Assembly: GCA_964641555.1 (NCBI GenBank) | Contig: CAZXKA010000002.1 | Location: 10,033 to 74,032, forward strand | Source of the DNA: an uncultured Candidatus Peribacteria bacterium | GTDB lineage: Bacteria > Patescibacteriota > Gracilibacteria > Peribacterales > Peribacteraceae | DNA: 64,000 nucleotides | Direction of reading: 5' to 3' | In this document: in pieces, positions 15,342 through 64,000 of the stretch | Numbering within the stretch: position 1 is the stretch's first letter | Layout of the letters: the number at the start of each line of letters is the position of its first letter | The notes under the pieces: generated by a model | Databases searched by the model: none | What the model saw: only the letters and a program-made list of their open reading frames with translations | What the model was told of the DNA's origin: nothing | Program-made: the position numbers and the translations under genes

Positions 15342-15395
15342 CGTGGGAGAGAGTATAGGGTACGTGCTACACTTCCGGTACGATTCATCCCCTCC

Positions 15396-45069: not shown

Positions 45070-45079
45070 GTCGGACGGA

Positions 45080-45095
45080 AGTATAGCGGTATACT
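45080..45095. promoter_or_regulatory. Back-to-back TATACT -10 boxes for two divergent leaderless genes
   Basis: Plus strand: TATACT 45090-45095, then 10 nt to ATG 45106. Minus strand: TATACT 45085-45080, then 10 nt to ATG 45069. Confidence 0.5.
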
Positions 45096-45105
45096 GGCGC
45101 CGACC

Positions 45106-46290
45106 ATGCGCATTCTCATGCTCACCGACAGCTTCCACCCCGAAGTGGGCGGAAGCGAAACGGCCATTTGGAGACTCGGCGAAGCGCTCGTCGCCCTCGG
45201 GCACGAGGTCGGCGTCGCGGTCATCTCGAAACCCAACGCGAGCAGCCCCTCCGATAAATTTTCGTTCTGGAACGTGTCGTCGAAGATCGGCACGGTGGAT
45301 CTGAAGTTCCTCGGGAAGATCCGGAATCTTCGGACGATCATCCGCGCGTTCCGACCGGACGTGCTCAACGTGCACTTCATGCTGGAATCCGGATACGTCG
45401 GAGTGAAAGCGGCGAAGGCCGAGGGGATTCCCGTGGTGCTCACGAACCGCGGCAAGGGCCTCTACAACGAAGCGACGTCGCTCCAGGAGTCGATCATGTA
45501 CCGGTTCTGGAACCGCGGCGCGGCGAAGGCCGATGCCTACATCGCGACGAGCGAGGAGATGGTCGACCGCGGCCGCGAGCGGTTCGGCCTCGAGACGACG
45601 GCGATTTCGAACGGCGTGGAAATCGACACCTTCCGCCCGGACGTCGACGGCGCGCCCATCCGCAAGCGCTACGGCGTCGGCCCGACGCAGCGCGTGATCC
45701 TCTGTGCGCGGCGGCTCGTCCCCAAGAACGGCATCGAGTATATGGTGCGTGCATTGCCCGGTGTCCTCCGGCATCACGACGCGGTGCTCTGGCTGGCCTC
45801 GCCGCTCATTCGCGAATATGAGACATTGAAAGCGCTCACCGAAGAGCTTGGAATTACGGAGAAGGTTCGGTTTCTCGGCAGCGTCGATCATACGGAACTG
45901 CCGGCGCACTTCACGGCGGCCGATCTGGTCGTGCAGCCGTCCATCGCCGAAGCACGCAGTTTGGCCTGTCTGGAAGCCATGGCCGCGGGGTCAGCGATCA
46001 TCGCGACCGCCACGGGAGGGCTGAAGGAACTTATCACGCACGGCGAGAACGGGTACCTGATTCCCGAATTCCAGGAAGCGACGTACGCCGTCGGTGCGGT
46101 GCAGGAAGAGGGCGTCAAGAATCTCGAACGAGCGGTCATCGACGTGCTCGGGAACGAAGAGCTGCGCCAACGGCTGAAGCGTGGTGCGCGGCAGTACGCG
46201 CTCACGTGCAGCTGGCCGGAAATCGCGAAGCAGACGCTTGCTGTCTACGAGAACACGATCGCTTCCCATTCGTCTTCCAAACACGGCTGA
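45106..46290 (+). CDS. GT4 family glycosyltransferase
   Basis: MRILMLTDSFHPEVGGSE..CARRLVPKNGI..QPSIAEARSLACLEAMAAGSAIIATATGG. Confidence 0.88.
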   Translation: MRILMLTDSFHPEVGGSETAIWRLGEALVALGHEVGVAVISKPNASSPSDKFSFWNVSSKIGTVDLKFLGKIRNLRTIIRAFRPDVLNVHFMLESGYVGVKAAKAEGIPVVLTNRGKGLYNEATSLQESIMYRFWNRGAAKADAYIATSEEMVDRGRERFGLETTAISNGVEIDTFRPDVDGAPIRKRYGVGPTQRVILCARRLVPKNGIEYMVRALPGVLRHHDAVLWLASPLIREYETLKALTEELGITEKVRFLGSVDHTELPAHFTAADLVVQPSIAEARSLACLEAMAAGSAIIATATGGLKELITHGENGYLIPEFQEATYAVGAVQEEGVKNLERAVIDVLGNEELRQRLKRGARQYALTCSWPEIAKQTLAVYENTIASHSSSKHG

Positions 46291-49981: not shown

Positions 49982-50725
49982 ATGGCGTTCGCCTTCACCC
50001 GCTACAAAGACCAGGGCGCGTTCCACTGGGCCCAGATGGAGACGCGGTCGCTCTGGAAGTACAACGCGTACCAAGCCGCGGCGTACGAGCTGGCGCTGAA
50101 CGCCTTGGGTGACGTGCGGGGCAAGACCGTCGTCGATATCGGGGCGGGGGACGGAGCGCTCTCGTCGCTCATCGTCCGCAAGGGCGCGAACGTCACGGTG
50201 GTCGATAACCAGCAGGCGGGATTGGACGTGGCGAAAAAAATGATCGAGCAGCGCGGCCTCTCCGCGACGTTCGTTCAAGGCGACGCCGGGCACACGACGC
50301 TCCCCGATGGCTTCGCCGACGCGGTGATGTGCAGCGAGCTCATCGAGCACCTCGACCATCCCGAATCGCTCGTTGCCGAAGCGTACCGGATCCTCAAGCC
50401 TGGGGGCGCGTTCGTCGTCACGACGCCGCACAAGCTCGGCGAGATCCCGATGTCGCAGTTCCACGTCCACGAGTTCTTCCCGACCGAGCTCAAAGAACTC
50501 GTCGCGACGACGTTCTCCGATGTCACGGTCCTCGAATCGCACCATGTCTTCTGGTTCTCGTTCTACGGATACCGCTTCCCGATGCTGCGCCGGCTGCAGA
50601 TCGGCAAACCGATCGTGAACATGCTGGCGCTGTGGTTTCGGTTCAATCCGTTCCTGTACGACGCGTCGACGCGCGGCAAGCGCGACTACTACGCCCAGCT
50701 CACGCTGCGGGCGACGAAGGCTTGA
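49982..50725 (+). CDS. Class I SAM-dependent methyltransferase
   Basis: VVDIGAGDGAL, LIEHLDHPE, LKPGGAFVVT. TATACT 49968-49973 lies 8 nt upstream of the ATG. Confidence 0.85.
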   Translation: MAFAFTRYKDQGAFHWAQMETRSLWKYNAYQAAAYELALNALGDVRGKTVVDIGAGDGALSSLIVRKGANVTVVDNQQAGLDVAKKMIEQRGLSATFVQGDAGHTTLPDGFADAVMCSELIEHLDHPESLVAEAYRILKPGGAFVVTTPHKLGEIPMSQFHVHEFFPTELKELVATTFSDVTVLESHHVFWFSFYGYRFPMLRRLQIGKPIVNMLALWFRFNPFLYDASTRGKRDYYAQLTLRATKA

Positions 50726-52043
50726 GGCCTTTGTGCTTCTCGATCTGGTACCACAGGTACAGGTACGGCGTGTTGCTGTTGGCGTATACGATGAGCACGG
50801 CCATGCACATGGCGATGAGCGGAGAGAGAGCCGACGACAGCGAGAAGAACACGATCAATGCGACCGCGATGCCGAAAAGGTTCGCAAGAATGCTCACGTG
50901 CATCTTCTTGAAGAGACGCAATAGCGGCACGGCGACCACTTGGAGCGATGCGAAGAGGTTGGTCGGCAGGAGGAGCAGGAAGGCCGGGATCGCACCGACG
51001 AAGGCCGTTCCGTAGACGTACGGTAGCAGCGGCGGGACGAAGATCGCGGCGCCGATGATGGCCAGGAGATGCAGGCCGAACGATCCCGCCATCAGCTGGA
51101 TGCACGCGCGCTTCAACGACTTCCGATCGAGCGTCGTGAGCCGAGGGATCGCGACGTTCGCCATGCGTGAGATGCTGGGCATGACGAGCGAGCGCGGGAG
51201 TTCGGCCAATCGCAGCGCGAGTCGGAAGAGGCCGACGATTTCGAGCGAGGCGACGGCGTTCAGAACCATGAAGAAGGCATTCGGATAGATATTATTGGCG
51301 ATGCTGCGATCCACCGAAATCCAGAATCCTTGTTTCCAGTATGTGCCGGTGTGTTGACGGAGTATCGAGGGTACGAGCGATTCGAGCGACGGGAATCCGA
51401 GCGCGACGCGCGCCCTGCGGTACAAAAGAAGACACAGGGGTACGTAGAGAAGCGAAATGAAGAGCTGACCGAGGAGGATCCCTTCGACGCCGAGCCCGAG
51501 GACGAGGAAGAGCGTGCCGAGGGCAACTTGGAGGATCGATCGCGCGTTCTCGAGGAGCGCCATCGTGCCGATCCGTTTGTTGAGCTGCAGACTAAGGAAC
51601 AGGAGCACGGCGGGCCACTGGAGCGCGGCGTTGAGGATCGCGAGCCGGGCGATTTCTCCGGCCCGTGCGTCGCCTTGGAGCAGATCGGCGAGCAGGGGCG
51701 CGGCGAGAATCAGGAGCAGGTAGATGACCGTCGTGACGGCCGACACTTGCAGGAAGTAGATGAGGACCGACCGGATGTCCCGGGCGTTCTTCCGCGCGGC
51801 GGCCTCGGAGAGGAAGGTTGTCAGCGTGATCTCCTGCCCGAGCGATGCGACGATCGTCACGATCCCCGCGAACGCGACGACGACGGCGTAGTACCCGTAC
51901 TGCTCGAGCCCGAGCAGTCGCGAGAAGAGAATGGACGACGCGAGCCCGGTGGCCATCGTGACGACGCTGCCGACTTGGAGCTTGGCGAGACCTTGAACGA
52001 AGGGTCGGTGGAGGAGCGCGGTGAGGGCGGAGGGGGTGCGCAT
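50700..52043 (-). CDS. Wzx-like polysaccharide/oligosaccharide flippase (MOP superfamily)
   Basis: About 12-14 TM helices with the typical flippase layout. There are three in-frame ATG candidates (52070, 52058, 52043). The non-overlapping one is listed. Confidence 0.7.
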   Translation of the reverse strand: MRTPSALTALLHRPFVQGLAKLQVGSVVTMATGLASSILFSRLLGLEQYGYYAVVVAFAGIVTIVASLGQEITLTTFLSEAAARKNARDIRSVLIYFLQVSAVTTVIYLLLILAAPLLADLLQGDARAGEIARLAILNAALQWPAVLLFLSLQLNKRIGTMALLENARSILQVALGTLFLVLGLGVEGILLGQLFISLLYVPLCLLLYRRARVALGFPSLESLVPSILRQHTGTYWKQGFWISVDRSIANNIYPNAFFMVLNAVASLEIVGLFRLALRLAELPRSLVMPSISRMANVAIPRLTTLDRKSLKRACIQLMAGSFGLHLLAIIGAAIFVPPLLPYVYGTAFVGAIPAFLLLLPTNLFASLQVVAVPLLRLFKKMHVSILANLFGIAVALIVFFSLSSALSPLIAMCMAVLIVYANSNTPYLYLWYQIEKHKGLKPSSPAA

Positions 52044-52047
52044 GCGG

Positions 52048-53862
52048 TCAGGCAGCATCGTACACGGCATCGAACCAGTGGCTCAGCTGGATGATGCTCG
52101 AGAGCGTGTGCAGGTGGTAGCCGCGTTTGTCCGTGTGTTCGCTCGCGATCCGACGCAGCGCGTCGATGTCGAAGAAGTCTTTCATGCGCGGTTGTTCCAG
52201 CGCTTCGTCGATGAGGGGAGCGGCTTCGCGGCGCAGCCACTTGGCGACCGGCGGGTAGAAGCTCGCTTTCGGGAGCGTGAAGAGGTGTTCGGGCAGAATG
52301 CCGCGGTAGGTGTCTTTCAGCAGGCGTTTCGTGCGCTTGAATCCGACGTGCCAGTTGCCCGGCGTTGCATGGGAGAACGCGATCACGCGCGGGTCGAGGA
52401 ACGGGATGCGCGCCTCCAAGCCGTTGCCGAGTCCGACGCCGTCGATGAGGCGCAGCGATTCGGACACGAGCCACGTATGGCGGTCGAACTCCATGAAGTC
52501 GCGCAGCGGGTCGTCGGTGTGCGGATAGCATTCCGCGAAGAGTTGTCGCGTCGCGGATCCGTCGAACCACGTGCCTCGGGCATAGGAGCAGATTTCGTCG
52601 GCCGGGCGCGCGAGCAGCCGTTCCGCAAGCGCCGCTCCGGGTAACATGCGCAGAACGTCCGCCGGTTGACCCGCGAAGGATCCGGCCAGACCGCGCAGCG
52701 CAGGCGGAACTAAGCGCAGGGCGTGGAGGATCTTGGTCACCCGATAGCGAGGATACCCGCCGAAGAGTTCGTCGCCTCCCGCTCCCGTGAGCGCGACGTC
52801 GACCGTGCGCTTCGCGACCTTGGCGAGCAGGAATTGCGCGACCGAGACCGTGTCGGCGTTCGGCTGCCCGAGCGACCGGACGGTATCGCGGTACAGCGAG
52901 CGTTGGTCGTCCGCCGTCAGGAGGATCTCCGTATGATTCGTGCCGTAGTGCTTTGCCGTGAGGGCCGCGAGATCGGCATCGGCGTTGAATCGGTCGGCGC
53001 CTTCTTCCTTCGTCGCGTCGAACCGGATCGTGAACGTGTTCACCGGACCGCTCGTGGATGCCGCCGCATGGTGCAGGACGATCGACGAATCCATCCCCCC
53101 GCTCAAGAACACGCCCACGGGCTTATCGGAGAGGAGGTGATCGGTGATGACTTGCTGCATCAGCGCCGGGAATCGTTCGCGGAATTCCCGCGGCGATGAC
53201 ACGGAATCGGACACCGCGTTCGATCGAAACGCGGATGCGGTAATCGTGCCATTGTTCCAACTGAGCGTCGTGCCCGGCGCCAATGCCTCGATCCCGTCGC
53301 AGAGCGTTTCGGGCTCGGGGACGTACTGGAGGCGCATGTAGCGCGAGAGCGAGCGCAGGTTCAGCGCGGGTTTCGTCTCGAACGATCGGAGGATCGCCGG
53401 CATCTCGGAGGCGAATCGCAGCTCGCCGGCGACCGTCGACACGTAGAGCGGGTTGATGCCGGATGGGTCTCGGGCAAGGTGCCACGATCGATCGCGCGTG
53501 TCGTAGATCCCGAACGCGAACATCCCCCGCAGCCGCGGCAGGAACGCGAGACCGTGGCGTTCGTAGAGTTTCAGCAGCACTTCGGTATCCGTGTTCGTGC
53601 GGCACTCGAATCGTTCCTGCTCACGCAGCTCGCGGTAGTTGAAAATCTCGCCGTTGAAGACGATCGCGATCGTCCGGTCCGCGTTCCACATCGGTTGGTC
53701 GCCGATCGGGCGCGGATCCAAGATTGCCAGGCGAGCGTGTCCGAGCGAGGCGCCGCTCTCGACGGCGACATGGTCGCCGTCCGGTCCGCGGTGGCGTAGC
53801 GCACGCGTCATCGCCGCGATCTCCTCGCGGCGTTCTCCCGATAGTCCGGCGATCCCGCACAT
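52048..53862 (-). CDS. Asparagine synthase (glutamine-hydrolysing) family amidotransferase, copy 2
   Basis: MCGIAG nucleophile, FLSGGMDSSIV PP-loop. TATACT (53875-53870) lies 7 nt upstream of the ATG. Confidence 0.88.
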   Translation of the reverse strand: MCGIAGLSGERREEIAAMTRALRHRGPDGDHVAVESGASLGHARLAILDPRPIGDQPMWNADRTIAIVFNGEIFNYRELREQERFECRTNTDTEVLLKLYERHGLAFLPRLRGMFAFGIYDTRDRSWHLARDPSGINPLYVSTVAGELRFASEMPAILRSFETKPALNLRSLSRYMRLQYVPEPETLCDGIEALAPGTTLSWNNGTITASAFRSNAVSDSVSSPREFRERFPALMQQVITDHLLSDKPVGVFLSGGMDSSIVLHHAAASTSGPVNTFTIRFDATKEEGADRFNADADLAALTAKHYGTNHTEILLTADDQRSLYRDTVRSLGQPNADTVSVAQFLLAKVAKRTVDVALTGAGGDELFGGYPRYRVTKILHALRLVPPALRGLAGSFAGQPADVLRMLPGAALAERLLARPADEICSYARGTWFDGSATRQLFAECYPHTDDPLRDFMEFDRHTWLVSESLRLIDGVGLGNGLEARIPFLDPRVIAFSHATPGNWHVGFKRTKRLLKDTYRGILPEHLFTLPKASFYPPVAKWLRREAAPLIDEALEQPRMKDFFDIDALRRIASEHTDKRGYHLHTLSSIIQLSHWFDAVYDAA

Positions 53863-53899: not shown

Positions 53900-56023
53900 A
53901 TGGCCGCGATGCGTTGGTTGTCGTTCTTCCGCCGTCCAAAACACCCGTTTCATGCGCTGGCGACAGAGCCGGCGTACGGCATGCTTCTCGTGGCGATCCA
54001 TGCGTTCGTCACGGCACTGGTAGTCGTTCCATTGCTGTTTCCCGAGCTGGATTTCTGGCGAAATCTCTCACCGAACGGAGGCGTGAAGACGTACGTCGGG
54101 CTCGTCGGAGGCATCGGCGGCGCGATCGTGCTCCTGCGGTGGTTCGTGCCGCGCCTATGGCAGCGCGATTGGGGCGTGTACGGCGCGCTCGTTGCGAAAC
54201 TGTGTCTCCTCACAGTGCTTCTTGTTCTGTTCAACACTTCTTCGTTTGTAACAGCGATCATCGTACTTATTGCAAGCATCGCGATCATCCCGACCGCGAT
54301 ATTCGTCCATGCCGATCGCGAACACGCGGTCCGCGTCGCGCTCGCCGTCTTCGCCGCGGCCGCCGCGCTGATCGTCAGTTTCTCAGCGGAAGATTACTTC
54401 GCCTTCCAAGCGGATCGTTTGGTGTTCGCAACCGTGCTTGCGACCGTCGCGCTGTTCGGTAGTACGTATTGGTGGCTGGGGCGTGAGCCGACGCGCTTCC
54501 GCTTCTTCGATGGCGTCGTCGTTCTGTTCTTCATTGCGTTGCCGTTTCTCTCGGCCGGTCGGTGGGACTTGTACCACTACGGATTGATCCTCGGTCCGGT
54601 TCAAGAGCTGCTCCACAACGGTCGTTTGCCGTTCAGCGATCTCCATGCCTACTACGGCACGGGCCTCACGGTCTTCCTTGCCGGATGGTTCTCGCTTCTG
54701 GGTATCGTCTCGGCGGAAGGGCTTCTGCTTCTTCAAAAATTACTGCTCTCCGGTGCGTACGTCGCGTTGTACGCGCTCTGTCGCTCGCTATGGGGTGACC
54801 GCCGCCTCTCGTTCCTCGCGACGTTCGCCACGTTCGCGTTCTACGGTGCATTCCTCGGTCCTGTCGCGTACGAAACGCCCTCGAGCGGAATGCTCCGCTA
54901 CGGCTGGATGGTCGTCGTCCTGTTGCTCCTCACGCTTCGACAGAGACGACCGATGGCATGGCTGTGGGTCGATATATTCATCGCTTTCATCTGCGCGATC
55001 GCGACGCTGTGGTCGTCCGATAACGTGCTCTACACGGTCGTGCCCGTCTTCGCGTTGCTCGTGCTCGGATGGGAATGGCGGCGATTGGGGATCACGTTAG
55101 GCGCGTACGTTGGATTCTCTGTTGTGCTGCTATTTTTTCTCAGCGCACCAGCGTTACTGGCGGGAGAGCGCATCCACTTCTCGCTCTACAGCGAATACCA
55201 AGCGGTACACGCCGCGGGATTCGGCGGGGGCATCATCGCGCTGCGCGATCTCTTCTGGCTCTTACCGGCGTTCATGGGTCTGGGATTCGCTCTCCGTCGT
55301 GCCGATCGCCCCCAAGATGAGCGCGTCACGCTTCTCGCGCTGTGGTGTCTCGCGACGCTGTCGTATTTCGTGTGGCACGGCCACTGGAAAGTCCTGCCGT
55401 CTGTCTCGTTTGCGTTCGTCGTTCTGGCCATCGCTGGCGCTCGTCTCCTTCCGCAAGCACTATCGCGGATCGTGTCATCGGTCATCGTGGCCGTTTTTCT
55501 TTCATCGCTGTATCTGCCGGCGGCCCATCTGTTGTCCGGTCGCGATGCCGTTCTTGCATCAGCGGGCGACCGGTCGCTCTTGATGTCGAATGCACCGTGG
55601 ATGCACGACGAATTCCGGCGGCGCCGCTGTTCCGACGATGTCTTGGCGCTTCGGCCGTACGTCGAGAGCGGCGGCCTCGCGCTCCTGTTGGATCGGCATG
55701 ATGCGTACAACATTTACGTCTGTCTCGGTACCGGGAACGCGTTCAACATCGATCCGACGCAGGCGTTGGAATTTCCCGGGATCGGCGATGCGCTGTTGGA
55801 GAACGTACGCACAACGCGTACGCAGTATCTTCTCGTCGGCGATCCGAGTGTGCCGTTTATCGCTCATGCTGCGGATCGTCTCAGCCCGATCATCGGCAGT
55901 CGCACGATGCGCGTCGTTCCGACCCAGAAGCTCGATGCGTTGATCGAAGAACTGTCGCTGCGTCCCATCGATACGATCGAGGTCTACGGCGAACCCCTGA
56001 CGATCTACCGCCGCTTGCCATGA
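53900..56023 (+). CDS. Polytopic membrane protein (about 708 aa), GT-C-like candidate
   Basis: The real part of ORF 53639..56023. ATG 53900, or 53909 (MRWLSFFRRP). Many TM helices and a soluble C-terminal domain. Confidence 0.65.
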   Translation: MAAMRWLSFFRRPKHPFHALATEPAYGMLLVAIHAFVTALVVVPLLFPELDFWRNLSPNGGVKTYVGLVGGIGGAIVLLRWFVPRLWQRDWGVYGALVAKLCLLTVLLVLFNTSSFVTAIIVLIASIAIIPTAIFVHADREHAVRVALAVFAAAAALIVSFSAEDYFAFQADRLVFATVLATVALFGSTYWWLGREPTRFRFFDGVVVLFFIALPFLSAGRWDLYHYGLILGPVQELLHNGRLPFSDLHAYYGTGLTVFLAGWFSLLGIVSAEGLLLLQKLLLSGAYVALYALCRSLWGDRRLSFLATFATFAFYGAFLGPVAYETPSSGMLRYGWMVVVLLLLTLRQRRPMAWLWVDIFIAFICAIATLWSSDNVLYTVVPVFALLVLGWEWRRLGITLGAYVGFSVVLLFFLSAPALLAGERIHFSLYSEYQAVHAAGFGGGIIALRDLFWLLPAFMGLGFALRRADRPQDERVTLLALWCLATLSYFVWHGHWKVLPSVSFAFVVLAIAGARLLPQALSRIVSSVIVAVFLSSLYLPAAHLLSGRDAVLASAGDRSLLMSNAPWMHDEFRRRRCSDDVLALRPYVESGGLALLLDRHDAYNIYVCLGTGNAFNIDPTQALEFPGIGDALLENVRTTRTQYLLVGDPSVPFIAHAADRLSPIIGSRTMRVVPTQKLDALIEELSLRPIDTIEVYGEPLTIYRRLP

Positions 56024-57876
56024 GTATCGCGCTGCTCTTGTCGCTCATCGGGACGGGCATGCTTCTTGGTCGCATACTGCATTTCCAACGATGGGCCTTC
56101 TGGGGAATGGCGTGCGTCGGCGGCATGGCGACGTTCATGGTGCTGGCGAACGCACTCGGATACGTCTTCCCGATAGATGTCGCATTCTGGATTACGGCGA
56201 TCGTGCATATCGTCGCCGGCATCGCCGGATTCTGGCTGCTTCTCCGTCGAGAACGGGAGGTAATGGATCGACCGACGATCGTCCTCGGCATCGCCGCCGC
56301 CGTCTGTGCGTTTGCGGTCATCCGCACGCTCGGGAGCGACCCGTGGTTTTGGGCCCAGTACCCGCTCGCCGCGACGATCGCCGAAGGAAACCTGGGGCCG
56401 GTGCGCGAAGTAGGATACCCGGATCACGTCGCCGCGTACCACTACGGACCCCAGCTCTTGGCCGGTGCCTGGTTCGCGCTGGCGGAGTTGCCGCTCGAAT
56501 TCGGCTTCGCGCTCCAGGCGATCCTCGGCGTCTTTGGATGTCTCTTCTTCGCCGCGGAGCTCGCGCGGATGAGCGGCATGCGTTCGTGGAGATCGATCGT
56601 GCTGGCGGTGCTGGCGTTGGCCGGCGGGGGAGTCCTGTGGCTCCATGGAGGGCTCGTCGTATCCGACATACTGCGCGACGACGTTTCGCCGTTCCGCTCG
56701 ATCGTGTTCCTGTTTCGCAGCAACGTGACGAACGCGCTCCTGCCGATGTTCGAGCAGCGGACGACGGCGCTCGGGTACCCGCTGCTCTTCGGTCTGGCGC
56801 TCGCGTTCGCAGCCTCGCTGCGCGAATCCAAAAGCCGTTTCGCGGTTTTCTGCATGACCGGTGCGGTGCTCGGCGCGGCGCTCGCGTTGACGATGGAAAC
56901 GGGATTGTTGCTCTTCGGTCTCGCGGCCGGACTGTGGGGCGTCCTGCTGCATCTTCGGCGCGCAACGCGGCGGGATGGCATCCACGTGTTGCTCGCGTGC
57001 GTGTGCATGCTGCTGCCGGCACTCTTCATCGCCCTCGTACAGGGTGGCGTCCTCTCCCATCTTGGTGCCGAGAACGACGCCGGCGCGTTGTCGGTCGATC
57101 CATCGTTCGGTGTTCCCATCGGGCGCGACGGAACGCGGCTGGCGCTCTGGTCGCCGACGGTGCTCATCGCGTTCGGTCTGCCGATCCTGCTGCTGCCGTG
57201 GACCGCGTGGGTCGCGCGGAAAGAAACCGGATCGCCGCTCCAACTCGTTGCGATTCTCACGATCGTCCATCTGCTCTTCCCGTTCGTCGTTTCGTTTGAT
57301 GAACGTCCGTCCGAGATGGTCCGGCTCCTCTACGGCGCGACGTCGTTCGGCGCATTCCTCGCAGGGTGGCGGTTCCTCATGAAGCCACAGAGATGGGCGT
57401 ATCTCGGTATCGGCGCCATGGTGCTTTCGAGCATTGTCTACGTCAGCGTTCGACTGACGTTACCGCGCTTACGCGCCGAGATTCCGCCGCTCATCGAACG
57501 TCTTCCAGCTTCTACCGTAGCCGAGCACGAGCTCTACGCATGGATCAGAGAGCATACGACGATCGCCGACCGCTTCTACGTCCGTAGCCAAGAGCTCGGG
57601 CCGGAGTTTTTGGAGGAAGATCTGCAGGACATCATCCTGTTCATGACGCGCACCGGGCGATTCGCTGTTGCCGATTACCACGTCGATACCTTTCCCGAAG
57701 AGAAGATTCCACTGCTTCGATCGATCGAAGAACGGTGTGACGGTGACGCGTTCCGGTCGCTCGGCATCCGCTATCTCGTCGTCTTGAACGACGAACGCGC
57801 CGCGTGGTTCGCATCCACATGCGATCGAACGCAATGGGACGCTCTTTCTTCCCGGCTCTATCATCTCATCGACTGA
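56020..57876 (+). CDS. Polytopic membrane protein (618 aa), GT-C-like candidate
   Basis: ATGA overlap with the upstream gene. The C-terminal domain carries YLVVLNDERAAWF, related to the motif in the proteins at 10346, 35869 and 37481. Confidence 0.65.
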   Translation: MSIALLLSLIGTGMLLGRILHFQRWAFWGMACVGGMATFMVLANALGYVFPIDVAFWITAIVHIVAGIAGFWLLLRREREVMDRPTIVLGIAAAVCAFAVIRTLGSDPWFWAQYPLAATIAEGNLGPVREVGYPDHVAAYHYGPQLLAGAWFALAELPLEFGFALQAILGVFGCLFFAAELARMSGMRSWRSIVLAVLALAGGGVLWLHGGLVVSDILRDDVSPFRSIVFLFRSNVTNALLPMFEQRTTALGYPLLFGLALAFAASLRESKSRFAVFCMTGAVLGAALALTMETGLLLFGLAAGLWGVLLHLRRATRRDGIHVLLACVCMLLPALFIALVQGGVLSHLGAENDAGALSVDPSFGVPIGRDGTRLALWSPTVLIAFGLPILLLPWTAWVARKETGSPLQLVAILTIVHLLFPFVVSFDERPSEMVRLLYGATSFGAFLAGWRFLMKPQRWAYLGIGAMVLSSIVYVSVRLTLPRLRAEIPPLIERLPASTVAEHELYAWIREHTTIADRFYVRSQELGPEFLEEDLQDIILFMTRTGRFAVADYHVDTFPEEKIPLLRSIEERCDGDAFRSLGIRYLVVLNDERAAWFASTCDRTQWDALSSRLYHLID

Positions 57877-58561
57877 GCGCGCGCAGTTGCCGAAACAGCG
57901 TCCGGCCGTGCTTCGAGAACACGCCCGGCTTCACGCTCGGCGTGCCGCCGGTGCGATCGAGGAACACGATCGGCACCCAGAAGATTCCCGTGGTGCGTTT
58001 CTGCAGCACCGCCAAGAGAATATTCGCGAGATGGAAATCCGTCGGAATACGATTGAGCAGCGGCTTCAGCGCATCCGCGCGCATCAAGCGATATGGGACG
58101 TTTGGATCCAAAATCCAGGTGCCGGTGGCGACGAGCACAACGGCGCTGACGACGCGAGAAATCAAAAACCGCAGAAGACCGTCTTTCCGCCACCACCGAA
58201 GCCCGTAGAGCACCGGCGAGCGATCGCGCGCATGCCAGAACCGCTCGATGTATCGCGGATCGCACTGACCGTCCGAATCGATCTGCAATACCCACTGAAA
58301 CCCCGCATCGCACGCGCGGCGGTAGCCTTCGATGCATGTTTGCCCGTGGCCGCTATTGGGCTTATCGACCACTTCGACATGCGTATCGTTCTCGGCGAAC
58401 CGTCGCAGGACCGCCAGCGTCCTGTCTTTCGATCCGTCGTTGAGAGCGAAAATGCGGTAATCGATGCCGAGCTTGCTGAGCGCCGCGCTCCACTCGCGGA
58501 GGACGGCCTCCACGGAGGCCTCCTCGTTGTACACGGGCATCACGACGGCGAGATCACGCAT
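57866..58561 (-). CDS. GT2 family glycosyltransferase translationally coupled to glf (candidate galactofuranosyltransferase)
   Basis: ORF trimmed to ATG 58561. MRDLAVVMPVYNEEASV..ALNDGSKDRT..QIDSDGQCDP. It overlaps the glf 3' end by 8 nt. Confidence 0.8.
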   Translation of the reverse strand: MRDLAVVMPVYNEEASVEAVLREWSAALSKLGIDYRIFALNDGSKDRTLAVLRRFAENDTHVEVVDKPNSGHGQTCIEGYRRACDAGFQWVLQIDSDGQCDPRYIERFWHARDRSPVLYGLRWWRKDGLLRFLISRVVSAVVLVATGTWILDPNVPYRLMRADALKPLLNRIPTDFHLANILLAVLQKRTTGIFWVPIVFLDRTGGTPSVKPGVFSKHGRTLFRQLRALSR

Positions 58562-59675
58562 CGGGATGATCCTGGCTGATACGGTCGAACGTCCGCAAGG
58601 CCTCTTCGAGCGCCTGGTCGGTGTTGATGTAGCGGTAGGTCGCGAGTCGTCCGGCGAAGTACACGTTCTTCGTGCGCGTTTCCTCGTCGGCCATCGCTTT
58701 GTACCGCTCGTAGAGCACGCGGTTTTCCGCAGCGGGAACCGGATAGTACGGATCGCCTTCGGCGCGCGGATATTCCACCGAGATGACAGTGTGCGGATGC
58801 CGCTGCTTCGTCGCGTGCTTGATCTCGACCGTGCGGGTGTAGGGGACGTCGAGGCTCGGTTCGTTGATCTGCACGCACGGCTGGACGTACTCGACCGGAT
58901 GTTCGACGAACTCGAACTCGAGCGAGCGCCATGGAAGCTTGCCCAGGGCGTTCTCGAAATAGGCATCGACCGGTCCGCAGTACACGGTCGCGACGCGGGG
59001 CGCGATCTTCCCGCGCACGGCGGAGTATTCGGTCGAGAGCAGCGTGCGGATGTTCGGATGATCGATCATCGCCGCGAACAGCGCCGTGTACCCCTTCGCC
59101 GGCATCACCTGGAACCCCTGGTCGACGTACCGGTTGTCGCGGTTCATGCGGATCGGGATCCGGCCGCAGACGGAGGGGTCGAGATCGCGCGGGTGGCGGT
59201 CCCACTGCTTGAGCGTGTAGCCGAGATAAAAGGCTTCGTAGAGCTCTTTTCCGACGCGCGAGAGGACGAATTCTTCCGAATTTTTTGGGTCTTTGATGTC
59301 GGCTCGGATTCCCGCCAAAAATGCCTCGGCGCTCTCGGGCGTGAATTCTCGGTGAAAGAACATCTCGAGCGTGTCGAGATTGATCGGAATCGGGTACAGC
59401 GTGTCGCCGATGCGGCTCTTCACGACGTAGTCGCCCGGGATCCAATCGGTGAAGGGCGAGAGGTAGTCGAGGAGTTTCTGGTCGTTCGTCCGAAAGTAGT
59501 GCGGGCCGTACGCATGGATCATGACGCCGCTTTCATGAAATTTGTCGTGGCAGTTGCCGGCCACGTGGTCGCGCTTGTCGACGACGATCGACCTCCAGCC
59601 GCGCCGGGTTGCCGCGCGCTCGGCGATCACGCACCCGACGGGGCCCGCGCCGATGATGAGCAGATCGCACTCCAT
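58554..59675 (-). CDS. glf: UDP-galactopyranose mutase
   Basis: LLIIGAGPVGCVIA, AYGPHYFRTN, YTLKQW, GRLATYRYINTDQA. Confidence 0.9.
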   Translation of the reverse strand: MECDLLIIGAGPVGCVIAERAATRRGWRSIVVDKRDHVAGNCHDKFHESGVMIHAYGPHYFRTNDQKLLDYLSPFTDWIPGDYVVKSRIGDTLYPIPINLDTLEMFFHREFTPESAEAFLAGIRADIKDPKNSEEFVLSRVGKELYEAFYLGYTLKQWDRHPRDLDPSVCGRIPIRMNRDNRYVDQGFQVMPAKGYTALFAAMIDHPNIRTLLSTEYSAVRGKIAPRVATVYCGPVDAYFENALGKLPWRSLEFEFVEHPVEYVQPCVQINEPSLDVPYTRTVEIKHATKQRHPHTVISVEYPRAEGDPYYPVPAAENRVLYERYKAMADEETRTKNVYFAGRLATYRYINTDQALEEALRTFDRISQDHPDA

Positions 59676-59690
59676 CGATGGCAGAGTGCC

Positions 59691-60602
59691 TTAGGTGTTC
59701 GTTTTGTACCACTCCACCGCCTTGCGTACGCCCTCCTCGAATCCGGTTTTGGGCGCGTATCCGAGCAGCGTTTTGGCTTTCGTGATGTCGGCGACGTAGT
59801 GCGTCACCTCGCCCGTGCGGGACTCCTGCAGATCGATCGAGGAATGGCTGCCCAGGAGTTCTTTCACCAAATCCGCGAGCCGCACGATCGTCGTACCCTC
59901 GCCGAACGCCAGGTTGAACGTCTCGCCGTTCGCCTTCTCGTGTTGTTCGAGGATGAGGATGACGCCGCGGATGGCGTCGTCGATGTACGTGAAGTCGAGG
60001 CACTTCTCCTTGCCGAAGATTGTCAGCGGCTCGTTCTTCTGCGCCCGGCGGATGAAGAGGGGCACCACGCGGTTGGAGCCGTCGTACGCGCCGTAGACGT
60101 TCGAGAAGCGGACGATGATCGTCTCCATGTCGTAACAGTGCCGGTACGAATGCACGAGCGCCTCGCCGCCGACTTTGCTCGCGGTGTAGGGGCTCTCGCA
60201 GTTTTCGACGCGCACCAAGTCTTCGGTGTAGCTTTTTACCTTGATGTTGCCGTAGCTCTCGCGCGACGAGGCGAAGATGAACGTTTTCACCTTGTTCTTT
60301 CGGGCCCATTCGAGCGCATTGAAGAGCGTGACGAAGTTATCGAGCGCCTTCGAAGGATCCTCGACGAGGTCGTAGACGCGCGCATTCGCCGCCAGGTGCA
60401 CCACCGCGTCGACGCCGGTCGGGTCCAGCTGGTCCATCGCCGCCGGATCGCGCAAGTCGCCGACCTTCGTGAGCGCGTCGACCGCCGGAATCCATTGGTT
60501 GGGCCGTGCGTCGATGCCCTGCACGGTGTGCCCTTCCGCGAGGAGTTGCTCGCAGAGGCGCGTGCCGATCGTTCCGCCGGAACCTGTGACAACCACGTGC
60601 AT
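59691..60602 (-). CDS. NAD-dependent epimerase (GalE-like extended SDR)
   Basis: VVTGSGGTIGTRL and YTASKVGGE. CACAAT lies 8 nt upstream of the ATG. Confidence 0.85.
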   Translation of the reverse strand: MHVVVTGSGGTIGTRLCEQLLAEGHTVQGIDARPNQWIPAVDALTKVGDLRDPAAMDQLDPTGVDAVVHLAANARVYDLVEDPSKALDNFVTLFNALEWARKNKVKTFIFASSRESYGNIKVKSYTEDLVRVENCESPYTASKVGGEALVHSYRHCYDMETIIVRFSNVYGAYDGSNRVVPLFIRRAQKNEPLTIFGKEKCLDFTYIDDAIRGVILILEQHEKANGETFNLAFGEGTTIVRLADLVKELLGSHSSIDLQESRTGEVTHYVADITKAKTLLGYAPKTGFEEGVRKAVEWYKTNT

Positions 60603-60636
60603 GGGCCAGCATTGTGCAGACCGCGCCCCGGATTGT

Positions 60637-61317
60637 CTACGCTTTCGCCCACCGGATCTTCCACATCTTCATCACTCCTTTCCACGCGTCGCTGAAGCGG
60701 ATTTTCTTTCCTTCGGCGAGGGTGCGGGGCTTGTAGCTGATCGGGAGTTCGCGGATGGGGATGCCGCGCTTGAGGCACTTGGCCGAGATCTCGGCTTCGA
60801 GCTCGAACCCGCGGCTGGTGAGATTCAGCGATCGGAACAGCGGCGTCGGGAGCAATTTGTAGCAGGTGTAGCTGTCGGTGATGCGCGCGAAAAAGAGGAC
60901 GCTCAGCACGCCGCTCAGTACCTTGTTGCCCCACAGGAACCGTCGGTAGATCGTCGGGTTCTCGCGCAGGAACCGCGAACCGAAGATCGCGCTGCCGGGA
61001 TGCGCCTCGGCCTCGCGAAGGAGCACGGCAATCTCGGAAGGATCGTATTCGAGATCGGCGTCCTGGATGACCGTGTAGTCGCCATCGGCCTTCGTTAACC
61101 CTTCGCGGATGGCGGAGCCCTTGCCTCCGTTCGGCTTCGTGAGGACCATATCTTGCGACCGCGCATGTGCCTTCAGAATCGAGAGCGAATCGTCTTTCGA
61201 GCCGTCATCGACGTAGATGATCTGCGCGTCGCCGCAGCGCTCGTTCAGCGCGTCCATGATCTCCTTCACGGTGCGGCCCTCGTTGTAGACCGGAACGATG
61301 ATGGTCAGTTTCGTCAT
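60637..61317 (-). CDS. GT2 glycosyltransferase, polyprenyl-phosphate sugar synthase-like
   Basis: ORF trimmed to ATG 61317. LTIIVPVYNEGRTV..YVDDGSKDDS..IQDADLEYDP. ATGA overlap with the upstream membrane protein gene. Confidence 0.85.
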   Translation of the reverse strand: MTKLTIIVPVYNEGRTVKEIMDALNERCGDAQIIYVDDGSKDDSLSILKAHARSQDMVLTKPNGGKGSAIREGLTKADGDYTVIQDADLEYDPSEIAVLLREAEAHPGSAIFGSRFLRENPTIYRRFLWGNKVLSGVLSVLFFARITDSYTCYKLLPTPLFRSLNLTSRGFELEAEISAKCLKRGIPIRELPISYKPRTLAEGKKIRFSDAWKGVMKMWKIRWAKA

Positions 61318-62450
61318 GCGAGATGATATGGATGAATGTTCAAAGCCAGCGAAATGCCGACCGTGAGGCCGAGCAGGATTGTAGCAGAGAGAATGGCCTT
61401 TGTGGGCCAACTGTTCCGTGCGGCCAGCGCGACGACGGCGCACGGATACACCGGCGTGATGACGCGGCCGATCGAGGTGATGGATCCCCAAATGTGGTCG
61501 GCCATCGTGAGCATGAGGAGCGAAAACGCGAGCGCGCCGAGCGTCGGGAGCGAAAAATCCCTTCGCCGGACGACCTGCGTGAGTGTCCAGCCGAGCACCG
61601 GCAGGACGAAGAGTAGGAGCAGCGCGATCGACGAGAGCGTGTAGGCGTTGAAACCCTTTTGGCCGGAAACAATTTCCCAGACCGCGACGAGCGGCAGATC
61701 GCGCTTGTCGGCGCTCAGGAAGAACGGCCATTCGCCGAAGATCGAGAAGATGACCGAGTGCCACGCGGCGAAGACCGCGATTGGCAGCAGCATCCAGGCG
61801 GCATCGTGCCAACGCCGATGCAGCACGAACCAGGCCAGCGCGCCGACCGCGAACAAGACGTTCACCTCGCGCGCCAGAACCGCAAGGGATAGGAGGACCG
61901 CATCAAATAGTTGTAGCCGCGCCCCATCGCGGGCGCGGACGAGGAACATCGTCAAAAGCAGAATCGTCACCGGTTCCGCGAGCGAAAAATGGAGGCCGAG
62001 GAGCGCGGCCGGCGACAGCGCGAGCGCGAGCGCGGCGAGCGCGTTCCCGGTGCCGCGCATCACGACGTACGCGGTAGTGGCCAATGCGAGGAGATTGATG
62101 GCGAGGAACGTCCAGGGGAGCGTGACGTCGTTGCCGAGAGCGAACACTGCCGCGAGCACCGGAAGCAGCACGCGTTGGTAGGCGTACGATTTCGGTTCCA
62201 TCGTTGCCAATGCGTCGCGCCCTTCGGCCGAGAAGATCAGCGGTAGCTGCCGCGCAATACGATAATACAGAGCGCCGTCGTAGGACGGCACATCGAGGAC
62301 GACGAAACCCGGCGGCAGATCGTCGGTCGATTGGTCCGTGCCGTAGTGGAACAGTGCCGACGGATGTCCGCTGTAGGGGACGAGCGTCCAGGCCGTGATG
62401 CCGATCGTGCAGAGCATCGCCGCGCCAAGCGCGAGCCAGGAGGGCTTCAT
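61314..62450 (-). CDS. Polytopic membrane protein (378 aa), candidate glycopolymer-assembly or GT-C-like protein
   Basis: About 10 TM helices. It forms an operon with the GT2 gene and is divergent from HAD-UbiA. I did not recognise a family from the sequence. Confidence 0.6.
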   Translation of the reverse strand: MKPSWLALGAAMLCTIGITAWTLVPYSGHPSALFHYGTDQSTDDLPPGFVVLDVPSYDGALYYRIARQLPLIFSAEGRDALATMEPKSYAYQRVLLPVLAAVFALGNDVTLPWTFLAINLLALATTAYVVMRGTGNALAALALALSPAALLGLHFSLAEPVTILLLTMFLVRARDGARLQLFDAVLLSLAVLAREVNVLFAVGALAWFVLHRRWHDAAWMLLPIAVFAAWHSVIFSIFGEWPFFLSADKRDLPLVAVWEIVSGQKGFNAYTLSSIALLLLFVLPVLGWTLTQVVRRRDFSLPTLGALAFSLLMLTMADHIWGSITSIGRVITPVYPCAVVALAARNSWPTKAILSATILLGLTVGISLALNIHPYHLA

Positions 62451-62455
62451 GGATG

Positions 62456-62462
62456 TATCCTA
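62456..62462. promoter_or_regulatory. Overlapping opposite-strand -10 boxes in an 18 nt divergent spacer
   Basis: Plus strand: TATCCT 62456-62461, then 7 nt to GTG 62469. Minus strand: TAGGAT 62462-62457, then 6 nt to ATG 62450. Confidence 0.4.
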
Positions 62463-62468
62463 GCAGTC

Positions 62469-63878
62469 GTGTCCTCCCTGCCCATCGCCGTCGATCTGGA
62501 TGGAACGCTGACGCGCGCCAACAGCATCTGGGAGCAGGTCGTGCTGCTGCTGCGCACACGCCCGTGGATGATCGTCATGCTGCCGTTCTGGTTGATCAAA
62601 GGGCGACCGGCACTGAAAGCGCGTCTCGCTCGTGTGGCGCCGATCGAGCGGATCGCGTTGCCGTTCCACTCGCAGCTCGTCGAATATTTGAACGAACAAT
62701 CCGTGATCGGACGCGAGATCGTGCTCGTAACCGCCGCCGATCAAACAACGGCCACGCACGTGGCGTCGCTCTTCCCGTTCTTCCGTGAAGGGATCGGCAC
62801 GTCGAGTTCCGTGAACTTGGCGGGCGCGGCGAAGGGCGAGTACTTGGCGAAGCGCTACGGCGAGAAAGGCTTCGTCTACGCCGGGAACGAATTCCGCGAC
62901 GTGCGCGTGTGGGAGCGCGCCGGCGCGGCGATCGTCGTGAATCCGCACCCCGGACTCGAAAAGGCCGCCGCAACCGTGACGTCGATCGAGCGATCGTTCG
63001 AGGATCGTCCGCCGCGTATGCGAACCGTCGTTCGGTCGATGCGTCCCCATCAGTGGCTCAAAAACATTCTCGTCTTCGTACCCGTGTTTACCGCGCACCA
63101 ATTGGGGAATGCCGACGCGCTCTGGTCCGTCATCGTTGCGTTCGTATCGTTTTGCATGGCGGCATCGGGCGCGTACGTCTTGAACGATCTCCTCGATTTG
63201 CCGTCCGACCGCGCGCACGCGACGAAGCGCTCGCGCCCCTTCGCATCCGGCGATCTCCCGGTCGAATGGGGAGCGATCCTGATGCCGCTGCTCTTTATCG
63301 CCGCCGCGGTATTGTCGTCGATGCTGCCGGTCGCCGCGCGTTGGGTGCTGGCGGTGTACGTCGTCGCGACGCTCTTCTATTCCTTCGGTCTGAAGCGCGT
63401 ACCCGTCGTCGACGTGCTCGTGCTGGCGGGGCTCTACGCGCTGCGGATCGTGATGGGCCACGAGGCGACGGGCATCGACTACTCGATCTGGCTGACCGTC
63501 TTCGCGGTGTGCATGTTCCTCAGCTTGGCGCTCTTGAAGCGCTACTCAGAACTGCGCAACCGCACCAACGGCTACGCGCCCGGTCGCGGCTATCACGTCG
63601 ATCATCGCTCCGCCATCGCGGCCGCGGGCATCGCGAGCGGCGTCGTCTCGACGGGCGTCATCGTCGGATACGCCGCCAGCGCGCACGTCCGGGAATTCTA
63701 CGGCCAGCCGCAATTCATCACCATCCTCTGTCCGATTTTTCTGCTGTGGATCCTGCGTCTGTGGTGGCTGGGTTATCGCGGAGACATGCACGAAGACCCG
63801 GTGCTCTTTACGTTGCATGACCTGGCGAGCGCGCTCGTGGGGTGTGCGACGATCTTGGTGATGCTGCTGGCAAGATGA
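62469..63878 (+). CDS. HAD-like phosphatase domain fused to a UbiA-family prenyltransferase (decaprenyl-phosphate phosphoribosyltransferase-like)
   Basis: GTG start 62469, the only start-like codon before the domain. HAD motif I AVDLDGTL. UbiA Asp-rich motif YVLNDLLDLPSDRAH. Eight or more TM helices. Confidence 0.8.
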   Translation: MSSLPIAVDLDGTLTRANSIWEQVVLLLRTRPWMIVMLPFWLIKGRPALKARLARVAPIERIALPFHSQLVEYLNEQSVIGREIVLVTAADQTTATHVASLFPFFREGIGTSSSVNLAGAAKGEYLAKRYGEKGFVYAGNEFRDVRVWERAGAAIVVNPHPGLEKAAATVTSIERSFEDRPPRMRTVVRSMRPHQWLKNILVFVPVFTAHQLGNADALWSVIVAFVSFCMAASGAYVLNDLLDLPSDRAHATKRSRPFASGDLPVEWGAILMPLLFIAAAVLSSMLPVAARWVLAVYVVATLFYSFGLKRVPVVDVLVLAGLYALRIVMGHEATGIDYSIWLTVFAVCMFLSLALLKRYSELRNRTNGYAPGRGYHVDHRSAIAAAGIASGVVSTGVIVGYAASAHVREFYGQPQFITILCPIFLLWILRLWWLGYRGDMHEDPVLFTLHDLASALVGCATILVMLLAR

Positions 63879-64000
63879 ACATCGTCGGTCGCGCCCAAGA
63901 ATGGGCGCGCTGGCACCTTCGTTTCACAAGCATTACAGACTTTTATAGGTTCTTCCGCTCTTCACGAACGCCGCATCGTTCATCACCGATTTTAGATCGT
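63875..64000 (+). CDS. Hypothetical protein, first 42 codons only (runs off the window)
   Basis: ATGA overlap with the HAD-UbiA stop. MNIVGRAQEWARWHLRFTSITDFYRFF.. stays open to the window edge. Too short to classify. Confidence 0.3.
   Translation, partial: MNIVGRAQEWARWHLRFTSITDFYRFFRSSRTPHRSSPILDR

Follow-up and report, generated by a model that had tools for sequence, protein, structure and literature searches.

A putative lipid-linked pentofuranose pathway and an accessory galactofuranose cassette in the surface-glycan region of a Candidatus Peribacteria bacterium

In the Citrobacter youngae O1/O2 system, ORF15 combines an N-terminal HAD phosphoribose phosphatase (PRP) with a C-terminal UbiA-type polyprenyl-phosphate phosphoribosyltransferase (PPPRS) and converts phosphoribosyl pyrophosphate (PRPP) into polyprenyl-phosphate-linked ribofuranose, and the small flippase ORF14 and the GT-C glycosyltransferase ORF12 (the founder of family GT136) then act to attach alpha-ribofuranose (alpha-Ribf) to the O antigen on the periplasmic side (Kelly et al., PNAS 2024, PMC11127046). 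A single short-chain dehydrogenase/reductase (SDR), ORF13, turns the sugar into xylofuranose (Xylf), and homologues of DprE1/DprE2 go with the systems that add arabinofuranose (Araf) (PMC11127046). Here we describe a gene for a protein of the same two-domain type, together with its neighbours, in a 64-kb stretch of DNA (62% GC) from an uncultured Candidatus Peribacteria bacterium; this whole stretch is called the window, and coordinates are window positions (1-64000). By sequence and predicted structure the protein is a member of the ORF15-type PRP-PPPRS family, from which we infer its activity. The closest known system is this three-component pentofuranose pathway of 2024, and not the mycobacterial locus Rv3805c-Rv3809c, to which a first-pass annotation of the window had likened the region.

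62469-63878, plus strand: HAD-UbiA fusion protein (PRP-PPPRS) of 469 aa with a GTG start, matching NF006088 and PDB 8j8j

The two parts of the protein, a HAD 'PRP' domain (residues ~1-178) and a UbiA-type PPPRS domain (residues ~183-469), are covered together by the NCBIfam model NF006088 (PRK08238), which scores 542 bits against a curated cutoff of 351 and aligns residues 3-468 of 469 with model positions 11-479 of 482. The runners-up are three decaprenyl-phosphate phosphoribosyltransferase (DPPR) models (1e-49 to 2e-37), whereas the models for archaeal-lipid, quinone, heme and chlorophyll prenyltransferases reach 3e-14 or weaker. Likewise, the mycobacterial DPPR synthase 8j8j was found at 5e-27 in a search of PDB sequences and the next family at 1e-4. 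In an AlphaFold2 (AF2) model built on 36 homologues (pLDDT 91.3) the C-terminal half is closest to 8j8j/8j8k by Foldseek (E 5e-11, target TM-score 0.79-0.80, 29% identity), ahead of other UbiA structures, and the N-terminal half to HAD phosphoserine phosphatases (1l7o and others; probability 1.0, target TM-score 0.53-0.59). The domain calls of the first-pass annotation, a UbiA domain of the phosphoribosyltransferase type fused to a phosphatase-like HAD domain, are borne out by these scores and folds, and by model scores the UbiA domain does not group with the quinone, heme or chlorophyll enzymes.

The residues point in the same direction. The HAD motif VDLDGT is an intact DxDxT, and D9, D11, K122 and D144 in the phosphatase half as well as N239, D240, D243, D247, R358 and E361 in the UbiA half are invariant among the 36 homologues. 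In ORF15 the residues D18, N247, D248, D251, D255, R366 and E369 were mutated, and the NDxxDxxxD loop and the R/E pair are required for activity of ORF15 and of Rv3806c (PMC11127046). With an offset of 8-9 positions these seven residues correspond to D9, N239, D240, D243, D247, R358 and E361 of the window protein. It is because the mutated residues of ORF15 all match invariant residues that we place the protein in the ORF15 type, and its NDxxDxxxD...RP motif also agrees with Rv3806c.

Many homologues of the protein (P0008, P0023 and others) are named '4-hydroxybenzoate polyprenyltransferase/phosphoserine phosphatase' by JGI and 'UbiA family prenyltransferase' by NCBI. The JGI names, in line with a generic Pfam UbiA match, would suit an aromatic or lipid prenyltransferase (e.g. 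4-hydroxybenzoate polyprenyltransferase) fused to a phosphoserine-phosphatase-like domain and unrelated to glycans. We consider such a function extremely improbable: against 1e-49 for the DPPR models, those for UbiA, heme o synthase and chlorophyll synthase reach 1.5e-8 or weaker, 8j8j is clearly ahead in sequence as well as in fold, the motif is that of Rv3806c, the homologue ORF15 is PRPP-dependent (PMC11127046), and the genomic context is wholly one of glycan biosynthesis. Both current annotations miss the PRP-PPPRS function, and the JGI-type annotation is wrong.

On two Azospirillum plasmids (L085 7507-10829 and L086 7480-10820; comparison loci are numbered L001, L002, etc.) the PPPRS homologues measure ~970 aa, with an N-terminal extension of ~500 aa. 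The next gene encodes an 'EamA family transporter' of 125 aa, and one for a FAD-binding oxidoreductase is nearby. The plasmid protein may be a GT-C-PPPRS fusion accompanied by an ORF14-like flippase.

Taking the locus as a whole, it appears likely that polyprenyl-phospho-ribofuranose made by the PPPRS, together with a galactofuranose (Galf) cassette, serves the decoration of a surface glycan outside the cytoplasm. On the cytoplasmic face of the membrane the UbiA-type domain would transfer 5-phosphoribose from PRPP onto polyprenyl phosphate, as has been shown experimentally elsewhere for the family, and the fused HAD domain would remove the 5-phosphate to leave polyprenyl-phospho-ribofuranose. 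The lipid donor would be flipped, most likely by a GtrA-family protein that is encoded ~2 kb beyond the window in syntenic relatives, and a GT-C-type membrane glycosyltransferase would add the pentofuranose to the glycan. A divergent five-gene operon (62450 to 57866) would supply further lipid-linked donors and a transferase. In this operon a 378-aa protein with a predicted GT-C fold and a 226-aa GT2 (GT2b) would act as a Peribacteria-wide pair; in an accessory cassette, UDP-galactopyranose mutase (Glf) would make UDP-Galf, and a second GT2 (GT2a) may load Galf onto polyprenyl phosphate for extracytoplasmic galactofuranosylation.

61314-62450, minus strand: polytopic membrane protein of 378 aa, GT-C fold predicted by AF2 and Foldseek
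60637-61317, minus strand: GT2b, soluble DPM1/AglJ-like GT2 of 226 aa (PF00535, 5e-25)
59691-60602, minus strand: extended SDR of 303 aa (Pfam Epimerase, 3e-47)
58554-59675, minus strand: UDP-galactopyranose mutase (Glf) of 373 aa (Pfam GLF, 2e-64; PDB 3hdq, 5e-108)
57866-58561, minus strand: GT2a, GT2 of 231 aa (PF00535, 6e-17)
56020-57876, plus strand: membrane protein of 618 aa, candidate GT-C with ~13 transmembrane (TM) segments and a C-terminal soluble domain of ~140 aa
53900-56023, plus strand: membrane protein of 707 aa, candidate GT-C with ~12 TM segments and a C-terminal soluble domain of ~165 aa
63933-64000, minus strand: 3' end of a gene for a TviB-like nucleotide-sugar (UDP-GlcNAc-type) 6-dehydrogenase that runs past the window (continued in L001; homologue in L002)

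The HAD-UbiA gene and the five genes of the operon had been named in the first-pass annotation, and all six were recovered with the positions and domain content it gave. The GC content at third codon positions (GC3) lies at 0.80-0.86 in five of the six frames, which separates them from the many spurious open reading frames (ORFs) of high-GC DNA; the GC3 of 0.68 for GT2b was measured only within a longer ORF. The five minus-strand genes form one tight unit, divergent from the HAD-UbiA gene, with overlaps of 4 nt (the 378-aa gene and the start of GT2b) and 8 nt (GT2a and glf) and gaps of 15 and 34 nt; the 378-aa gene and the downstream GT2b gene are translationally coupled. Only 18 bp (62451-62468) separate the divergent starts, ATG at 62450 for the 378-aa gene and GTG at 62469 for the PPPRS gene. 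Here TATCCT (62456-61, plus strand) stands 7 nt before the GTG and its overlapping complement TAGGAT 6 nt before the ATG, facing -10-like hexamers that as a pattern would be compatible with leaderless transcripts in both directions; the promoter results of a promoter and terminator scan stayed at chance level.

An ORF starting at 63875, earlier considered too short to judge, is probably no gene, the segment 63933-64000 being the 3' end of the convergent dehydrogenase gene. The proposed extension of the contig past 64000 yielded 545 bp (L001), which encode the C-terminal 223 aa of this dehydrogenase, 91% identical to the L002 protein (392 bits to TviB, 371 bits to TIGR03026); beyond that, gene order was taken from syntenic relatives.

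The identity of the pentofuranose was addressed with 80 diverse PPPRS loci from GTDB genomes (the matches listed, all at most 45% identical to the window PPPRS). A DprE1-like FAD_binding_4 gene is present in 46 of these 80 listed loci, and in 30 of 72 listed loci it lies directly downstream of the PPPRS gene; one of the encoded proteins matches DprE1 (4aut) at 4e-65. With DprE1-like queries the window gave no match, even with E-values up to 10 allowed, nor did nine related loci (L001-L004, L007, L020, L087-L089), and among the annotated window genes there is no FAD_binding_4 protein and no adh_short-only protein. Dedicated queries thus agree with the earlier statement that the window holds no DprE1/DprE2-type pair. 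In L002, which is fully syntenic and has an 85% identical PPPRS, the genes past the PPPRS encode a TviB-like dehydrogenase, a 309-aa SDR, GtrA and a 327-aa PgfS/ArnC-like GT2, then a 394-aa membrane protein, a cupin and a 315-aa extended SDR (best NCBIfam models RmlB, LegB, GalE and TviC), with no oxidase in the 7 kb downstream of the PPPRS. The set from the dehydrogenase to the 394-aa membrane protein is also found beside the PPPRS in L004, L089 and L020, and its first gene, the dehydrogenase, is confirmed by L001 on the window's own contig. Since no DprE1/DprE2-type 2'-epimerase was found in the window or its relatives, against 46 of the 80 listed loci, the pentofuranose is most likely ribofuranose (or xylofuranose) rather than arabinofuranose. 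Xylofuranose would be expected if either the 303-aa SDR or the 309-aa SDR by GtrA acts like ORF13 of C. youngae; for arabinofuranose, further genes would have to be present in another part of the genome.

In three more distant relatives, L003 (2525-5114), L004 (2550-5139) and L007 (10150-12847), overlapping genes near the PPPRS encode a GMC-type FAD oxidoreductase of 513 aa and an SDR of 350 aa. The two could stand in for DprE1/DprE2 without being orthologous to them; no homologue of the GMC oxidoreductase is present in the window. Such an alternative epimerase is one of the points that would favour a true arabinogalactan-like, decaprenyl-phospho-arabinose (DPA) pathway, in which polyprenyl-P-ribose is turned into polyprenyl-P-Araf by an oxidase and a reductase encoded elsewhere and a galactofuran is made in addition. 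The homology of the PPPRS to Rv3806c, the presence of glf, the occurrence of DprE1-like genes in most listed PPPRS loci of other phyla and the coverage of 64 kb of a 198-kb contig also fit this pathway. We nevertheless judge it unlikely: DprE1-like genes, where present, usually adjoin the PPPRS (the 30 of 72 listed loci), whereas neither the window nor the 7 kb downstream in L002 has a DprE1-, DprE2- or GMC-like gene, the window has neither a polymerase of the GlfT1/GlfT2 type nor a GT-C of the Pfam Arabinose_trans type, and the glf cassette is dispensable in L089.

The mycobacterial DPA/arabinogalactan locus does share several traits with the window, i.e. a homologous phosphoribosyltransferase (8j8j, 29% identity, target TM-score 0.79), a Glf homologous to the Mtb enzyme 1v0j (3e-77), a GtrA-family protein nearby (by synteny) and the logic of extracytoplasmic GT-C enzymes. 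The differences concern the phosphatase, which is a fused HAD domain in the window and the PAP2-type Rv3807c in mycobacteria, the lack in the window of DprE1/DprE2, of a GlfT1/GlfT2-type polymerase and of a detectable Emb/Aft-type GT-C, and the position of glf in an accessory cassette with a 231-aa ArnC-like partner. With DprE1/DprE2 absent from the 64 kb and from the syntenic relatives, and no GlfT or Emb/Aft features, the arabinogalactan analogy is superficial. The observations of the first-pass annotation stand, as does its idea of lipid-linked furanose donors at work outside the cytoplasm, and its interpretation is partly supported; what the bacterium does outside the cell is probably to decorate its surface sugars, not to assemble an arabinogalactan of the mycobacterial type.

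The likeness to the C. youngae system is closer. Both have the same two-domain donor synthase with aligned catalytic residues, in a polysaccharide locus with polytopic GT-C-like proteins and SDRs and without DprE1/DprE2, as in the Ribf and Xylf versions (PMC11127046). The window differs in its host, a member of the Candidate Phyla Radiation (CPR) with a small genome, in the lack of a MATE/SMR-like flippase by the synthase, GtrA being predicted by synteny, in a Wzx-type instead of an ABC-transporter context, and in candidate GT-C partners that are not detectably similar to the GT-C genes near other PPPRS loci; it adds at least two predicted polyprenyl-P-hexose synthases and the glf cassette. 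We regard the module as one more pentofuranose system of the known three-component type, whose host is unusual and whose atypical flippase is predicted from synteny. The cytoplasmic gPRT-PRP ribofuranosyltransferases (Kelly et al. 2022, cited in PMC11127046) have in common with it the origin of the sugar from PRPP and a HAD-family phosphoribose phosphatase; there, a soluble glycan phosphoribosyltransferase acts directly on the glycan, whereas the window encodes a membrane enzyme of the UbiA type predicted to make a lipid-linked donor.

The third component, the GT-C glycosyltransferase, was sought among the membrane proteins of the locus. The 378-aa protein was modelled by AF2 on an alignment of 53 sequences (pLDDT 93.5, pTM 0.93), and its top 15 Foldseek matches in the PDB are all GT-C enzymes or proteins of GT-C fold (probability 0.96-1.0, E 1e-3 to 5e-2, query TM-score 0.32-0.50), including ArnT, PglB, ALG9, PimE, AftA, STT3, AglB, ALG3/6/12 and PIG-U. 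A GT-C fold is thus supported by the model, and Y57-D58, in the first extracytoplasmic loop after TM1, is invariant in the family. At the sequence level there is a weak match to NF046093 ('cell surface glycopolymer formation protein'; 105 bits, below the cutoff of 150), and the family profile has no match among PDB sequences. The family is common in Peribacteria, its named members all being Peribacteria or Peregrinibacteria, and its conserved neighbour is a DPM1/AglJ-like GT2 of 226-228 aa.

This neighbour, GT2b in the window, is by sequence of the dolichyl/polyprenyl-phosphate hexose synthase type (DPM1/AglJ-like). Its best NCBIfam model is AglJ (9e-31) and its best PDB match DPMS (5mlz, 2.6e-12, over residues 3-204 or 90% of its length), followed by ArnC, in agreement with the polyprenyl-phosphate type proposed earlier for 60637-61317; it has DADLE in place of DxDxQ. 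Orthologues of 74% identity are found beside the PPPRS in L003 and L004. As the 378-aa/GT2b pair persists where the PPPRS is absent (L087), the 378-aa GT-C probably uses a lipid-P-hexose supplied by GT2b. The idea that the 378-aa protein, encoded divergently beside the PPPRS like a 525-aa protein in L007 and L020, is itself the ribofuranosyltransferase was downgraded, the pairing with GT2b holding without a PPPRS.

The large neighbours at 53900-57876 had been called GT-C-like. They are indeed polytopic, with soluble tails, and the topology makes them candidate GT-C glycosyltransferases; fold support is confined to the 378-aa protein. Neither matches Pfam or NCBIfam, and with E-values up to 5 no Pfam match was obtained for ten membrane proteins including these two, nor an Arabinose_trans or other GT-C family match for any window membrane protein tested. 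The 707-aa protein has orthologues in L002 (80% identity) and L089 alone, and in each case its gene immediately precedes that of the 618-aa protein. The family of the latter is narrow (103 clusters among 1.84 billion representatives); 12 of its 63 members match DUF2298 (best 8e-9) and one matches PMT_2, all weakly, and its profile has no match in the PDB. Both proteins co-occur with the PPPRS in the window, L002 and L089, and are absent from L003, L004, L007, L020 and all 80 listed diverse loci. In L007 and L020 a conserved 525-aa protein with 9-10 TM segments and an 'IDDSF' loop is encoded divergently beside the PPPRS; the window does not have it. When all membrane-protein families from the window and from its relatives were compared by hhalign, no two of them matched significantly, and none of the 378-, 618- and 707-aa proteins resembles any gene near the 80 listed PPPRS loci. 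As to the flippase, no gene for one lies within 57866-64000. A GtrA-family gene is located 2-4 kb past the PPPRS in L002, L004, L089 and L020, and the window ends before that distance.

Glf is unambiguous: its sequence identifies it as a UDP-galactopyranose mutase (UGM) that would convert UDP-Galp into UDP-Galf. It matches D. radiodurans UGM (3hdq) at 5e-108 over residues 4-367 and 13 UGM structures at 1e-60 or better, both Pfam GLF and NAD_binding_8 match, and TIGR00031 scores 281 bits, just under the cutoff of 304. Its partner GT2a, of 231 aa, is by sequence ArnC/GtrB-like and not GlfT1/GlfT2-like (best NCBIfam model ArnC, 4e-16, over residues 3-191; best PDB matches ArnC, 3e-11, GtrB, 2e-8, and DPMS, 6e-5, with PgfS among the closest characterised relatives), and no GlfT1/GlfT2-type polymerase was found. 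Residues 95-99, DSDGQ, correspond to DxDxQ, which has been proposed as a hallmark of polyprenyl-P glycosyltransferases (PMC10821137).

L089 has the gene order of the window (GT4, methyltransferases, Wzx, AsnB, two large membrane proteins, a 228-aa GT2, a 377-aa GT-C, PPPRS, dehydrogenase, SDR, GtrA) without the GT2-glf pair, and its SDR orthologue adjoins GtrA. From this absence in an otherwise syntenic locus it follows that the glf-GT2 cassette is an accessory insertion, and therefore that Galf and the pentofuranose need not share one polymer. Of the proposal that a furanose-containing polymer is built outside the cytoplasm from lipid-linked donors, the donors retain their precedent in ORF15 (PMC11127046), whereas the single polymer is not required.

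The cassette was followed in metagenome loci (L090-L169) that hold 80 GT2a homologues, 40 of the loci being evaluable (35-55% identity). In 24 of these 40 glf is adjacent on the same strand. The flanks of the glf-GT2 pair (35 loci) are enriched in proteins of 420-840 aa with 7-11 TM segments, in PMT_2 and in GtrA; PMT_2, a GT-C family, is the commonest Pfam family there (7 matches; GtrA, 2). The cassette occurs in many environmental and human-gut metagenome contigs. Flanks of this content are characteristic of three-component systems and suggest a polyprenyl-P-Galf donor. GT2a would transfer Galf from UDP-Galf, probably to polyprenyl phosphate, and the cassette may represent an undescribed three-component galactofuranosylation system.

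The main rival explanation is that GT2a is a conventional cytoplasmic transferase, which would add Galf to a polyprenyl-diphosphate repeat unit exported by the Wzx-like flippase (50700-52070), so that no lipid-P-Galf is formed. To our knowledge, all characterised bacterial Galf transferases use UDP-Galf directly; the region contains many GT4 and GT2 Leloir enzymes besides the flippase, 16 of the 40 evaluable loci have no adjacent glf, and a literature search found no published description of a lipid-linked (polyprenyl-P-) Galf donor. Set against this are the nearest characterised relatives of GT2a, all polyprenyl-phosphate glycosyltransferases (ArnC, GtrB, PgfS, DPMS), its DxDxQ and the PMT_2-type GT-C, other 7-11-TM proteins and GtrA that flank the pair in other lineages. 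We regard the cytoplasmic reading as possible, without calling it probable. The wider proposal, that the cassette makes polyprenyl-P-Galf for a widespread, unrecognised extracytoplasmic three-component galactofuranosylation, here beside polyprenyl-P-ribofuranose, and that all surface furanosides come from lipid-monophosphate donors through divergent GT-Cs invisible to profiles, is put forward tentatively, as a serious possibility somewhat short of an even chance.

In the GtrA/GtrB/GtrC, ArnC/ArnT and GacI/GacJ/GacL systems we find the nearest relatives of both small GT2s (ArnC, GtrB; also DPMS), and the 378-aa protein resembles ArnT, PglB and PimE in fold. Both small GT2s are without the TM hairpin that GtrB and ArnC have at the C-terminus, and the coupling of one of them to glf, which would imply a Galf donor, has no published precedent that we could find.

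Several points weigh against the likely pathway of polyprenyl-P-ribofuranose plus Galf cassette. No flippase gene stands beside the PPPRS in the window, GtrA rests on synteny, and the characterised system uses a MATE/SMR-like protein. No GT-C of the locus can be assigned as the user of the ribofuranose donor: no similarity is detectable between the 618- and 707-aa proteins and the genes near the 80 listed PPPRS loci or the 525-aa protein of L007 and L020, and the 378-aa/GT2b pair is also present in L087, beside a dehydrogenase with no PPPRS nearby. An epimerase pair could lie in the rest of the 198-kb contig or elsewhere in the genome. For the cassette, to the 16 evaluable loci without adjacent glf may be added that the exact DxDxQ is present in only 32 of the 80 homologues. 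For this organism, moreover, the pathway is predicted from sequence and modelled structures.

The 303-aa SDR between glf and GT2b had been described as a GalE-like epimerase. It is an extended SDR with GSGGTIG and YTASK motifs and has UDP-Glc 4-epimerase as its best PDB match (4zrm, 2e-35; then RmlB and UDP-GlcA 4-epimerase), but its NCBIfam scores stay below the cutoffs (RmlB 160 bits, GalE 119 bits), and its sequence makes it a nucleotide-sugar 4-epimerase/dehydratase-like protein. A GalE dedicated to Glf was rejected as the sole reading, orthologues of 57-62% identity being found in the glf-less loci L004, L020 and L089, in L004 and L089 beside GtrA.

The window derives from a wastewater metagenome. 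A taxonomic check assigns the contig to Candidatus Peribacteria, a CPR lineage (class of the candidate phylum Peregrinibacteriota): its enolase is 73-83% identical to its best hits, of which every named one is from Candidatus Peribacteria, Peribacteraceae or Peribacter. Adjoining the enolase gene is one for a NifU_N (SufU/IscU-type) scaffold protein (13669-14085), in agreement with an earlier remark on minimal Fe-S machinery. From ~14 kb to the window end nearly all genes are glycan-related, and include GT4s, GT2s, rmlA/B/C-like genes, a DegT aminotransferase, a UDP-GlcNAc 2-epimerase, SDRs and methyltransferases, as well as two AsnB-type amidotransferases, the Wzx-like flippase, a GT2-GtrA fusion and a GT2 + DUF2304 pair. 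The module stands last in at least 50 kb of DNA devoted to the biosynthesis of surface glycans.

The PRPP-based pathway for lipid-linked pentofuranose thus appears to reach the CPR, where genomes measure ~1.2-1.4 Mb and yet at least 50 kb is used here for envelope glycans, with many polytopic proteins that are invisible to Pfam. The presence or absence of a DprE1-like gene beside the PPPRS can serve to predict Araf versus ribo- or xylofuranose. If the cassette does make a lipid-linked Galf donor, this would be a new donor class in bacterial glycobiology, relevant to the gut and environmental bacteria that carry it.

Eight polytopic proteins of the window with 9-17 TM segments have no Pfam match at E-values up to 5 (10346-11767, 14241-18203, 35869-37476, 37481-39103, 43759-45909, 53900-56023, 56020-57876 and 61314-62450). 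Several have a long loop after TM1, and those of 535 and 540 aa are tandem paralogues (32% identity). Their density is unusually high for a ~1.3 Mb genome, and they are possibly of the GT-C type. One of them, of 1320 aa and with ~17 TM segments, is encoded at the start of 14241-19218; next come genes for a GT2 of 220 aa and a DUF2304 protein of 119 aa, with overlaps of 4 nt. We take this pair to resemble the polyprenyl-P-GlcNAc synthase pair GacI/GacJ (or WpsA/WpsB), and the set would be another lipid-P-sugar system of the region. A 387-aa protein (30019-31182) with a GT2 catalytic domain and a C-terminal GtrA/DPMS TM domain is a further candidate polyprenyl-P-sugar synthase.

Finally, AsnB-type glutamine amidotransferases are encoded at 46206-48149 and 52048-53862, and by synteny a TviB-like UDP-GlcNAc 6-dehydrogenase (L002 11466-12737) and an extended SDR with a TviC-type 4-epimerase match (L002 16892-17839) are expected beyond the window. 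The combination suggests that the glycan contains amidated (N-acetyl)hexosaminuronic acids.

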